Shown here: one piece after another, positions 3,409 through 5,191 of the stretch
Layout: each line of letters begins with the position of its first letter
Numbering within the stretch: position 1 is the stretch's first letter
IMG/VR virus record: IMGVR_UViG_2526164619_000010
Location: 1-23,525 of that record
Reading direction: 5' to 3' (one strand)
Source of the DNA: a virus
Taxonomy: Duplodnaviria > Heunggongvirae > Uroviricota > Caudoviricetes
Length of the DNA stretch: 23,525 bases
The notes under the pieces: model-generated
What the model saw: only the letters and a program-made list of their open reading frames with translations
Database searches by the model: none
Told to the model about the DNA's origin: nothing
Made by a program: the position numbers and the translations under genes

Positions 3409-3716
3409 TAAAAAAGCCGCCAGCGGCAGGAACGGAAGCTGGCGGAGGTAATCCCAATGGAGAATGTAAAGAAAAGATGCTTTCGTATATCGGTTTTTTA
3501 AATGAAAACAGTTCTCATTGTCAACCATAACAGTAAGAAACTATGACATTTATTCATCAGGTGATGCTGTACTTCTGTACGGCGGTCTGTGTGCTGTATC
3601 TTCTTTCGGGTGGGTACAGGGCAGTGCGCGATTTCTGGCGCAGGCAGATTGATAAAAGGGCCGCAGAGAAAATCTGAGGTGTACTGGCAATAGCGGACAC
3701 TACCATTTGTTCTTTT

Positions 3717-4535
3717 TTAAGCAGCCATCTGATGATATTTTTCCCTGAAGGCTGCCGGGGAGATATTCCCCAGACGAGAGTGACGACGCTGACGATTGTA
3801 GAAAATCTCAATGTATTCCCGTATTACTGAGATGGCTTCATCCCGGTTATTAAAACGATAGTGGCTCAGGCTCTCATTTTTCAGCGTTCCCCAGAAGCTT
3901 TCCATCGGAGCGTTGTCGTAACAGTTACCTTTACGCGACATTGATGTTTTCAGACCAGACTGCTCCTGTATGACCCGGTAATCGTATGCGCAGTACTGTG
4001 AACCTCGATCAGAGTGGTGGATTAGCCCGGCAGGTGGGCGCTGGCTCCTGAGCGCCATAAACAGGGCTTTACCTGTCAGCTCTTTTGTCATGCGCTCTCC
4101 CATGGCGTAGCCGACAATTTCGCACGTATAAACATCTTTGATGCCAGCGAGGTACAACCATCCCTCCTGTGTGGCAACATACGTCAGGTCCGCCACCCAG
4201 ACCTGATTTGGTGCTGTAGGAGCGAACGTCTGGTTCAGCAGATTTGGCGCAACTGGCAGATTGTGGTTCGGGTTCGTAGTCGCTCTGAACTTGCGTTTCT
4301 GCTTACAGCGTAGCCTTAGCTCCTTACGAAGACGTGCCAGTCGGTCACGACCAACGATGATGCCATTCTCTGCCAGCTCCGTCTGGAGCCGCCGGGTTCC
4401 ATATGTTTCGCGAGTGCGGATATGTGCCACCTTAATCTCCAGTTTTAGCCGCTCATCACTTTGTTTTCTGTCTGAGGGTTCATGCTGTACCCAGTTGTAA
4501 TAACCGCTCCTGGATACACCAAATACCTGACACAT
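3717..4535 (-). CDS. IS600-like OrfB (DDE integrase-type catalytic domain; normally made as OrfAB by programmed -1 frameshift)
   Basis: 272-aa ORF with the IS3-family catalytic region ...WVADLTYVATQEGWLYLAGIKDVYTCEIVGYAMG...HHSDRGSQY...NAPMESFWGTLKNE...; frameshift site not pinpointed. Confidence 0.87.
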   Translation of the reverse strand: MCQVFGVSRSGYYNWVQHEPSDRKQSDERLKLEIKVAHIRTRETYGTRRLQTELAENGIIVGRDRLARLRKELRLRCKQKRKFRATTNPNHNLPVAPNLLNQTFAPTAPNQVWVADLTYVATQEGWLYLAGIKDVYTCEIVGYAMGERMTKELTGKALFMALRSQRPPAGLIHHSDRGSQYCAYDYRVIQEQSGLKTSMSRKGNCYDNAPMESFWGTLKNESLSHYRFNNRDEAISVIREYIEIFYNRQRRHSRLGNISPAAFREKYHQMAA

Positions 4536-4570
4536 CGCTTCAATGGGAAATTGTTGTCGCCATTGTTCGA

Positions 4571-4873
4571 TTAACGCGTATTTTTCAGCGACTCCTGTGC
4601 AAAATACGCTGTTGCTTTTTTTAATATATCTCGCTCAAGGCGAGCTTCATTTAACGCCTTACGCAGTTGCAGAATTTCAGATTCCAGTTCAGCCACCGTG
4701 CGGGAACCAGGAGTACCGAGCCCTTTTCTGGCGGCGGTAACCCATTGTCCTAAAGTGCCTTCAGGAAGGGATAATCGGGAAGCGCCTTCACTGATCGAAA
4801 GTTGATTTTCAAGAACCGTTCTGACAGCTTCGGCTTTGAACTCTTTAGAGTAACGTTGGTTTTTTCTGCTCAT
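4571..4873 (-). CDS. IS600-like OrfA (helix-turn-helix DNA-binding protein of IS3-family transposase)
   Basis: 100-aa ORF MSRKNQRYSKEFKAEAVRTVLENQLSISEGASRLSLPEGTLGQWV...LERDILKKATAYFAQESLKNTR with leucine-zipper-like C-terminus, recognised as IS600 OrfA. Confidence 0.87.
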   Translation of the reverse strand: MSRKNQRYSKEFKAEAVRTVLENQLSISEGASRLSLPEGTLGQWVTAARKGLGTPGSRTVAELESEILQLRKALNEARLERDILKKATAYFAQESLKNTR

Positions 4874-4888
4874 TATTAGCTCCTTCTG

Positions 4889-5191
4889 ATGCCATTCTAT
4901 TTCAGGAAGGAGTGTCCGTTAAACTCAGGCTACCTCAAGCGTCATATCTGGCTCAGGGACGCCGGGCAGTGCCGTCTCTGTGGTCGTGTGGTTGACCTCT
5001 GTGACAGTGAACTCGATCACCGAATTGCACTTCAGTTCGGTGGTGGTAATGAGGAGACGAATCTCTGGACGCTCTGTACCGAATGCCATCGACAAAAGTC
5101 TGCTCGTGAAGCGGCGAGTGATATGCCGGACCCGACGCTGCCGGAGGTGTCCGGAGGTAGTGGCAGAGAGGACGACATCATCGGACTGTAA
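4889..5191 (+). CDS. HNH endonuclease (phage packaging-associated), 5' end disrupted by IS600-like element; first 16 codons including the ATG are IS-derived
   Basis: ORF translation ...LRDAGQCRLCGRVVDLCDSELDHRIALQFGGGNEETNLWTLCTECHRQKS carries the C-x2-C...DH...N...C-x2-C-H HNH motif. ORF starts at ATG 4889 inside the IS right end (IS ends 4937); sits directly upstream of the terminase genes, as in HK97-type phages. Confidence 0.6.
   Translation: MPFYFRKECPLNSGYLKRHIWLRDAGQCRLCGRVVDLCDSELDHRIALQFGGGNEETNLWTLCTECHRQKSAREAASDMPDPTLPEVSGGSGREDDIIGL

Follow-up and report, generated by a model that had tools for sequence, protein, structure and literature searches.

How did an HNH endonuclease open reading frame (ORF) come to start inside an insertion sequence (IS), and is the resulting fusion likely to do anything? 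We addressed this question in a phage-derived stretch of 23,525 nucleotides (IMG/VR record IMGVR_UViG_2526164619_000010), analysed whole and referred to here as the window. The earlier note on this DNA had placed the start of the HNH ORF at an ATG at position 4889, within the right end of an IS600-like element, with 16 codons encoded by the IS, and all of these coordinates hold (Table 1). Its picture of a simple insertion interrupting HNH does not, as IS600 sits in a DUF1378 gene and was very probably joined to HNH only later, by a deletion of 3,831 bp. We thus read the region, with high but not complete confidence, as the scar of two events, an IS600 insertion followed by an adjacent deletion, in a lambdoid prophage that resembles Stx phages and is decaying in a Shigella-type genome.

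Table 1. Positions of the features in and around the IS600-HNH region, numbered from the first base of the window
Feature	Position	Strand	Basis or description
SASA-family carbohydrate esterase gene, NanS-p type, 653 aa	1447..3408	+	ORF and annotated homologous DNA
Truncated DUF1378 gene	3543..3677	+	44 native codons (3543-3674) and a TGA stop from IS600
IS600 (IS3 family), complete	3675..4937 (1263 bp)	-	IRR (orfB-distal) at 3675, IRL (orfA-proximal) at 4937
IS600 orfB, 272 aa	3717..4535	-	DDE integrase core, PF00665 rve, E = 8.8e-26
IS600 orfA, 100 aa	4571..4873	-	HTH_Tnp_1, PF01527, E = 1.3e-20
Hybrid ORF, 100 codons	4889..5191	+	16 IS codons (MPFYFRKECPLNSGYL) in frame with HNH codons 38-121
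Sigma-70-like promoter match, TTAACG-17-TAGAAT	4894..4922	-	Consensus match only; in the IRL end
Deletion junction, CCTCAA microhomology	4933..4938		BLAST overlap, three-way alignment and reconstruction
HNH remnant, codons 38-121 of 121	4938..5191	+	No difference from the last 84 aa of the L001 and L017 HNH
HNH-terS intergenic region, 289 bp	5192..5480		Five ATGTTAAC/GTTAACAT motifs
Small terminase subunit gene (terS)	5481..6044	+	Pfam Terminase_2; annotated so in L001
Large terminase pseudogene, 5′ part (392 of 553 codons)	6041..7219	+	In-frame stop at 7217-7219

The ATG of the hybrid ORF lies 49 nt inside the IS600 end, the IS-derived codons 1-16 occupy 4889-4936, and the predicted product begins MPFYFRK and ends at the stop codon at 5189-5191. 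From residue 17 to residue 100 the product does not differ from residues 38-121 of native HNH proteins (121 aa), which bears out the claim that everything from 4938 onward is native. The bases CCTCA at 4933-4937 are common to the IS600 end and to native HNH, so that Leu16 of the hybrid is also Leu37 of the native protein. The Pfam HNH domain (PF01844) spans hybrid residues 28-73 (native 49-94; E = 2.4e-8, above the gathering score), and the catalytic CxxC...DH...N...CxxCH core, of the beta-beta-alpha-metal type, is kept in the translation. With 84 of 84 residues identical to native, the retained part shows no decay of its own, and in PDB chains the HNH-domain matches begin for the most part at native residues 35-37. 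What is gone is the basic N-terminal segment of 36 residues, in place of which stand residues encoded by the IS. The native N-terminus had been described as displaced; it was indeed lost, by deletion of HNH codons 1-36 rather than by displacement. Alignment to uninterrupted homologues, as had been proposed, puts the native start 36-37 codons upstream of 4938, so a native start downstream of that position, which the earlier note had named as the finding that would speak against its reading, is not what the homologues have.

The IS itself, called IS600-like before, is a complete IS600 that is 99.9% identical over its full length to annotated copies (reference about 1264 bp), the sole difference being a run of T6 instead of T7 at 3707-3712. 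It has the two-ORF layout of the IS3 family, with a helix-turn-helix orfA and a DDE/rve orfB, both on the minus strand and in relative -1 frame; orfB carries a set of three further Pfam domains (HTH_21, PF13276; rve_2, PF13333; rve_3, PF13683), and a 'programmed frameshift' is annotated on identical copies. The terminal inverted repeats are of the TG...CA type (TGAGGTGTAC...GGCTACCTCA), with TGAGGT read from outside at both ends and TGAGG...CCTCA as the outermost bases. At least 80% of IS600 is present in 1,750 E. coli records, annotated as 'IS3-like element IS600 family transposase', and such genomes carry it in up to 43 places each. The 3-bp target duplication that the earlier note had wished to see mapped does not exist in the window, where IS600 is flanked by ATC on the left and AGC on the right. 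Such a duplication was seen in 4 of 5 complete reference copies examined (TAC, GTT, AAC and AGC), while reference copy L006 is also without one. The missing duplication reflects the history of the flanks and not the identity of the element, as the second ATC was lost in the 3,831-bp deletion.

On the left side of IS600, the 44-codon ORF had been said to run into the IS boundary and perhaps to be the original 5′ part of HNH. The first is correct, its stop codon being the first three bases of IS600 (TGA, 3675-3677). The second is ruled out by its match to the DUF1378 family (PF07125, positions 1-44 of 59, E = 3.9e-27, 94.6 bits against a cut-off of 25), which is partial because IS600 cut the gene. 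Native DUF1378 proteins have 60-64 aa, and native versions are present in L001 and L002. At least 128 blocks of the collection contain exactly this 44-aa product; 22 of them hold contigs over 1 Mb, and the chromosomes with it include that of Shigella boydii CDC 3083-94 (CP001063).

An uninterrupted arrangement is found in E. coli O10:H32 (L001), in which one prophage has HNH at its full 121 aa together with DUF1378 and the lysis cassette, and the window flanks lie about 4.1 kb apart. Among 5,426 complete E. coli genomes, none had the window flanks contiguous or either of the window junctions, and an exact-pattern scan of species-representative genomes (one genome per species) gave no match to either junction. 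Several complete Shigella chromosomes, on the other hand, have IS600 at the same site in DUF1378 and in the same orientation. In the five loci that were read as far as HNH (L017, which is CP026807.1, and L021, L022, L023 and L025), both the full lysis cassette and an HNH gene for 121 aa come after IS600. Their left junction and 44-aa product, like those of CP001063, are identical to the window's, the DNA on both sides is 98.8-99.5% identical, and the same esterase gene and HNH-terS-terL module are present; they differ in keeping ATC/ATC, the 3.8-kb lysis cassette and the whole of HNH, whereas the window is without 3,831 bp. In L011 (from the record of L017) and L015 (from that of L021), the sequence itself shows the ATC/IS/ATC duplication, and by BLAST the DNA to the left of IS600 was 98.5-99.7% identical to L011-L016. 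Four further loci (L018, L020, L024 and L026) have the same IS600 copy with other right-hand partners. At these identities, the L017-type loci are relatives and not the direct parent of the window strain. As a side observation, a synthetic query for the ancestral junction (IS600, ATC and the 3′ part of DUF1378) had no match in the complete E. coli genomes and the same junction was then found in Shigella chromosomes through an exact-protein look-up; the E. coli collection was the wrong place to search.

Comparison with L017 located the deletion. By BLAST, window 1270-4938 corresponds to L017 7727-11397 at 99.5% identity and window 4933-9813 to L017 15223-20135 at 98.8%, and the two segments overlap exactly on CCTCAA in the window. 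When 3,831 bp between two CCTCAA hexamers were removed from L017, the window junction was recreated with 0 mismatches in 400 nt. The first hexamer consists of the last 5 nt of IS600 and the A of the duplicated ATC, the second lies across HNH codons 36-38, and no other CCTCAA occurs in the deleted interval. The right junction has two forms, IS/ATCAGCGCC in the ancestral loci and IS/AGCGTCAT after the deletion.

The most plausible course has two steps. In the first, visible as such in the Shigella chromosomes, IS600 entered the small gene for DUF1378, which lies between the esterase gene and the lysis genes, and ATC was duplicated. In the second, whose outcome the window preserves, the DNA between the hexamers was lost in the window's lineage, likely when strands slipped or switched at the short repeat, possibly during copy-out replication of IS600. 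With it went the 3′ remainder of DUF1378, DUF826, holin, DUF1327/YdfR, lysozyme, Rz, a TonB_C gene, a YlcI/DUF3950 gene and HNH codons 1-36. An intact IS600 end now abuts HNH codon 37, and an IS ATG happens to be in frame. Two simpler orders of events were rejected. A simple insertion into HNH does not agree with the missing duplication or with flanks between which every uninterrupted relative has about 3.8-4.1 kb, and a leftward deletion from an IS600 that had first inserted in HNH would have had only 1 bp of microhomology and does not agree with a left junction that is the widespread one.

The literature describes or proposes both deletions reaching outward from the ends of IS3-family elements and a switch of strands to microhomologies in the course of copy-out replication (10.1101/2023.06.07.543989). 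As with IS629 in E. coli O157, with IEE-associated events and in the microhomology strand-switch model, the window deletion starts exactly at an intact IS end, and it ends at a 6-bp identity with that end. The published IS3-family cases differ in that they concern IS629 or ISApl1 and that mostly the IS itself was lost, whereas the window retains IS600. Perhaps the window shows this proposed strand switch as it occurs in nature. As to the enzymology, the candidates are end joining, replication slippage and strand switching linked to the transposase.

The mismatched flanks, ATC and AGC, are also what would be expected if a second IS600 had inserted in HNH at a target AGC and had recombined with the DUF1378 copy, deleting the interval and leaving one IS. 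Both the multi-copy nature of IS600 and the lack of a duplication at L006 agree with such a route, which we nevertheless consider unlikely. Two extra events would be required in place of one, and nothing in this route leads one to expect the CCTCA(A) that the IS600 end shares with the HNH breakpoint; as CCTCAA occurs once in about 3.8-4.2 kb, this would be a chance coincidence of roughly 1 in 1,000 or less. The junction of an HNH 5′ part with IS600 that the route predicts (...CCCTCAAGC/TGAGGTGTAC, with TGAGGTG as the IS start, and also ...TTTCCCTCAAGC/TGAGGTGTACTGG) was found in none of the 5,426 E. coli genomes. A preference of IS600 for targets resembling its own ends could have explained CCTCA; there was no sign of it in the canonical copies, a tiny sample in which none of the 4 targets examined adjoined CCTCA.

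Apart from the window, the exact hybrid protein was found in only one other contig, L003, which is 99.94% identical to the window. Judging from these sequences, the IS-HNH junction is young and confined to one small lineage, to which GCA_049894805.1 belongs. Since an outward ATG with 16 open codons behind it is a feature of every IS600 copy, one in three junctions is expected to be in frame, and the fusion seen here is fortuitous, not beyond chance.

The earlier note had also suggested that the IS drives re-expression of HNH, that is, that the IS600 end provides a promoter and a start codon for an N-terminally swapped, catalytically intact nuclease with some function. The open frame, the complete Pfam core and the unmutated native part are all in keeping with this idea. 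However, a promoter scan of 3350-5500 gave no plus-strand match, and the only promoter-like match inside IS600 faces inward, toward orfA and away from HNH, the adjoining end being the transposase-proximal one. No Shine-Dalgarno sequence precedes the ATG at 4889 (upstream sequence TTAGCTCCTTCTG), and we found no paper on an outward promoter of IS600. Moreover, microhomology set the junction and the frame is accidental, the hybrid is limited to its small lineage, and in other genomes too similar ORFs with a start inside an IS600 end have been called, as annotation by-products. Re-expression is thus very unlikely. The hybrid ORF is most likely silent and functionless, because it has neither a ribosome-binding site nor an outward promoter match, the large terminase (TerL) is a pseudogene, and the Q/late-promoter half of the prophage was lost. 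We infer its non-expression from absent consensus signals; read-through or antisense transcription across IS600 may take place.

The surroundings agree with the claimed association of HNH with packaging. HNH, a repeat-rich spacer, terS and terL follow one another in this order, as in L001 and L017. By domain and gene context, the window HNH can be likened to HK97 gp74: both are small PF01844 proteins with two CxxC pairs, encoded directly upstream of terS and an HK97-type terL (PF03354), beside a presumed cos region. In PMC9410871 and PMC3592412, gp74 is described as stimulating cos cleavage by TerL. The window HNH differs in lacking residues 1-36, with 15-16 foreign residues instead, and in having a pseudogene for its TerL partner, which leaves the role of a cos-cleavage cofactor without a partner. 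The large terminase gene also has a 19-bp deletion near 7400; the short-read contig L003 has the same broken gene calls, and L001, L017 and L021 each have the gene undamaged at 553 aa. An IS1 stands where the prophage's early half would be; the Q/late-promoter half was lost to an IS1-bounded deletion. Having no lysis cassette, the prophage could carry out neither cell lysis nor DNA packaging, and the HNH gene without its native N-terminus is, as the earlier note held, one more packaging lesion. That an orphan nuclease with an intact catalytic core and a foreign 16-residue N-terminus, started from IS600 and uncoupled from terminase and late control, might have been kept for a new role as a free nuclease or nickase is harder still to credit.

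An assembly that collapsed two IS600 copies into one and dropped the DNA between them is scarcely conceivable: one-base homopolymer deficits relative to the short-read contig of the same lineage suggest an error-prone long-read assembly of the window, but long reads normally span a 1.26-kb IS, the junction is independently present in L003, and a collapse would still need a second IS600 inside HNH, a copy for which there is no evidence.

The locus is a case of ordinary prophage decay, and beyond correct annotation the finding matters little. The CDS at 4889-5191 should be annotated as a 5′-truncated HNH pseudogene, not as an HNH endonuclease, and the CDS at 3543-3677 as a truncated DUF1378 gene. 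It does offer a worked example of an old, widely shared IS600 insertion anchoring later lineage-specific deletions, with ancestor, product and 6-bp repeat all visible, which may interest those who study IS3-adjacent deletions or Shigella genome reduction.

Two further features flank the scar. The esterase DNA is 99.7% identical to that annotated as 'SASA family carbohydrate esterase' in E. coli O104:H4-type genomes; such genes lie in the late region of Stx-type lambdoid phages, upstream of the lysis cassette. On the other side, the motifs of the HNH-terS spacer include a 22-bp perfect palindrome (5281-5302), and the spacer is a candidate cos or small-terminase recognition region.

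The IS600 element in the window showed 99.9% full-length identity to E. coli copies annotated as "IS3-like element IS600 family transposase", its sole difference from one reference copy being in a T run outside the ORFs (3707-3712, T6 instead of T7). Its termini read TGAGGTGTAC... at one end and ...GGCTACCTCA at the other, which identifies the end at 4937 as the transposase-proximal one (IRL). On its left the element has ATC, on its right AGC; it thus lacks the 3-bp duplication that had been assumed in the earlier note; such a duplication (TAC, GTT, AAC or AGC) is present in 4 of the 5 complete IS600 copies fetched for comparison.

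Features of the window that bear on the IS600/HNH region and on the decay of the prophage
Feature	Position	Strand	Context or content	Basis
IS1, 768 bp	502-1269		joins chromosomal DNA (drpB side, 1-501) to region upstream of esterase gene (1270-1446)	
44-codon ORF, truncated DUF1378	3543-3674		upstream of IS600, runs into it	Pfam DUF1378
IS600, complete, IS3 family	3675-4937	transposase genes minus		near-identity to annotated copies
orfB	4535..3717	minus		rve domain
orfA	4873..4571	minus		HTH_Tnp_1 domain
Hybrid HNH ORF	ATG 4889, stop 5189-5191	plus		ORF translation
IS66-family element	~14799-17561	minus	TnpB-like 16766-17452, transposase 15159-16520	

As previously noted, the HNH ORF starts at an ATG inside the IS600 end, which encodes its codons 1-16. 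The remainder, residues 17-100, agrees without a difference with residues 38-121 of the native HNH endonucleases, which are 121 aa long, and the Pfam HNH core (PF01844) spans residues 28-73, so that the catalytic motifs are kept. The lost residues 1-36 form a basic segment. HNH-domain matches to PDB chains start mostly at native residues 35-37, placing the cut at the edge of the core domain, while the alignment of one small stand-alone HNH protein, 4H9D, from native residue 20 suggests that part of the lost segment is structured. The full-length HNH gene and its upstream neighbour are widespread, with at least 80% of the stretch found in 1,212 E. coli genomes, and the deposited phages closest to the packaging side of the window are Stx1a-converting phages (98%).

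The 44-codon ORF does run into the IS boundary, its TGA stop being the first three IS600 bases, but it is not the 5' part of the HNH gene, as had been considered. It matched positions 1-44 of 59 of Pfam DUF1378 (E = 3.9e-27) and shares all 44 of its residues with the DUF1378 protein (64 aa) of O104:H4-type prophages, which rules out the HNH assignment. A query made of the joined flanks was run against 5,426 complete E. coli genomes, none of which had a place covering both. In the uninterrupted prophage locus of E. coli O10:H32 (L001), the order is esterase, DUF1378, DUF826, holin, YdfR, lysozyme, Rz-type lysis protein, TonB-family gene, YlcI/YnfO, HNH (121 aa), terS and terL, with the two window flanks ~4.1 kb apart. 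This distance, the missing duplication and the DUF1378 identity of the 44-codon ORF argue against a simple IS insertion into the HNH gene, the event originally proposed. In 6 complete E. coli genomes (L005, from strain 2013C-3252, and hits H42-H46), the same HNH gene has an IS600 in the same orientation some hundreds of bases upstream; in L005 the element occupies 2501-3764, with a GTT duplication, on the far side of YlcI/YnfO. These insertions arose independently in this neighbourhood and left the HNH gene intact.

Five Shigella-type loci (L017, which is CP026807.1, L021, L022, L023 and L025) have an IS600 that matches the one in the window in both position and orientation, and the duplication ATC|IS600|ATC was read directly in the records of L017 and L021 (L011 and L015). 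After it come the rest of DUF1378 (AGCGCCAGTCAG...), DUF826, holin, DUF1327, lysozyme, Rz, TonB_C, DUF3950, a full-length 121-aa HNH gene, terS and terL. By BLAST, window 1270-4938 matched L017 7727-11397 at 99.5% and window 4933-9813 matched L017 15223-20135 at 98.8%, identities at which the compared relatives are not the direct parent. The two segments share six bases, CCTCAA. The first copy in L017 consists of the last five IS600 bases and the A of the duplicated ATC, while the second lies in HNH codons 36-38 (TCC CTC AAG) and is the sole CCTCAA within the interval in both L017 and L001. Removing the 3,831 bp between the copies from L017 reproduced the window junction with 0 mismatches over 400 nt, from which it follows that an L017-type prophage gave rise to the window through a single deletion. 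The deletion ran between 6-bp direct repeats, anchored at the IS600 end, and took out the lysis cassette together with HNH codons 1-36.

Its product is the two CCTCAA repeats joined, for which replication slippage alone would suffice. Deletions reaching out from IS629 ends are described in a review of IS3-family excision, which proposes strand switching to nearby microhomologies in copy-out replication (10.1101/2023.06.07.543989). The window deletion, which begins exactly at an intact IS600 end, fits this picture, in which the transposase may have taken part. The main rival, at which a second IS600 entered the HNH gene and recombined with the first, requires more events and does not predict the identity of the hexamer, and its predicted intermediate junction was not found among E. 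coli genomes; we regard it as quite unlikely.

The left IS600 junction is old and widespread, whereas the right one is young. An exact-sequence look-up detected the 44-aa truncated DUF1378 product in at least 128 assembly-collection blocks, 22 of which hold contigs >1 Mb; one chromosome with this product, CP001063, is Shigella boydii CDC 3083-94 according to a published table (PMC2974192). Apart from the window, a single contig, L003 (GCA_049894805.1), turned up with the exact hybrid protein; it and the window share 99.94% identity over 6.3 kb. Near-identity to the loci with the ancestral insertion, one of them S. boydii, and the IS load would make the window Shigella-type. On the right of the DUF1378 IS600, L024 has chromosomal genes (peptidase S9, exoX, copCD), and L018, L019, L020 and L026 have an IS66-family insertion followed by chromosomal genes, including ABC-transporter genes; this copy is therefore a recurrent rearrangement point. 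In the latter four, the IS600 is itself interrupted, either by an IS66-family element or by IS66 together with IS110 elements.

In intact lambdoid phages, such late-region genes lie on the Q-dependent late transcript. The window lacks everything upstream of L017 position 7727 in the relatives (replication genes, Q antiterminator, methylase); IS1 stands in for all that lies upstream of the esterase region, with no 9-bp duplication around it. Furthermore, terL (6041-7740) has decayed to a pseudogene: a stop codon interrupts its frame at 7217-7219, and compared with L001 it lacks 19 bp near 7400. The independent short-read contig L003 has the same lesions (broken calls of 392 + 50 + 90 aa); L001, L017 and L021 keep an intact terL of 553 aa, and in L022, L023 and L025 the gene is broken in other ways.

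The role known for HNH proteins of the packaging class is to enhance the cleavage of cos that the large terminase carries out (PMC9410871; PMC3592412). An outward-facing ATG that opens a run of 16 codons is common to all IS600 copies, and the hybrid reading frame, set by the chance position of the repeat, is a 1-in-3 accident. Similar gene calls that begin within an IS600 end exist elsewhere: an "ATP-binding protein" in L008, a hypothetical protein in L006 and, in the ancestral loci, a "DUF826" protein of 134 aa. No Shine-Dalgarno sequence was found in the 13 bases upstream of ATG 4889 (TTAGCTCCTTCTG), while GGGGA precedes the native HNH start. The promoter scan gave no plus-strand promoter in 3350-5500, its only match in the 4937-side IS600 end (4922..4894) pointing inward to orfA. 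With these consensus signals missing, the hybrid ORF is probably not expressed. Given also the IS1 replacement, the dead terL and the lost residues, we conclude that it is a pseudogene truncated at its 5' end, whose start arose by accident. The re-expression from the IS suggested in the earlier note finds no promoter match, no Shine-Dalgarno sequence and no working terL, and true expression with some function is hardly to be expected.

None of the ingredients is new: IS600, DUF1378, the packaging HNH of the gp74 type and the decay of prophages through IS elements in Shigella-like genomes have been described before. The deletion is lineage-specific, yet of a familiar kind; it is mildly instructive in that its ancestor, its product and the 6-bp repeat can all be recovered.

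One-base A/T homopolymer deficits relative to the same-lineage contig L003, to L001 or to the IS600 reference were seen at 3707-3712, 5352, 7722 and 10427, the last splitting the portal ORF (10084-10446 / 10449-11243). They look like long-read under-calling rather than biology; thus, single-base frameshifts in the window are not to be trusted. The tape-measure gene (17618-20779) is apparently split, really or by homopolymer error, into ORFs of 809 aa (17618-20047) and 223 aa (20108-20779), the latter with the lambda tape-measure C-terminal domain. Just upstream, the IS66-family element breaks the tail gene region, and the alignment to the Stx1a phage stops at 14798 and restarts at 17562. Between HNH and terS, five ATGTTAAC/GTTAACAT motifs (5281-5408), among them a perfect 22-bp palindrome, GCCAGTTAACATGTTAACTGGC, at 5281-5302, are plausibly a candidate small-terminase or cos recognition region of this phage group. 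Compared with E. coli phages the prophage is mosaic: the esterase/DUF1378 side (1270-3674) is 99.7% identical to O104:H4-type Stx2 prophage DNA and only 72-75% to the Stx1a phage; on the right side (4938-14798), the packaging and head genes of that phage match at 95-98%.
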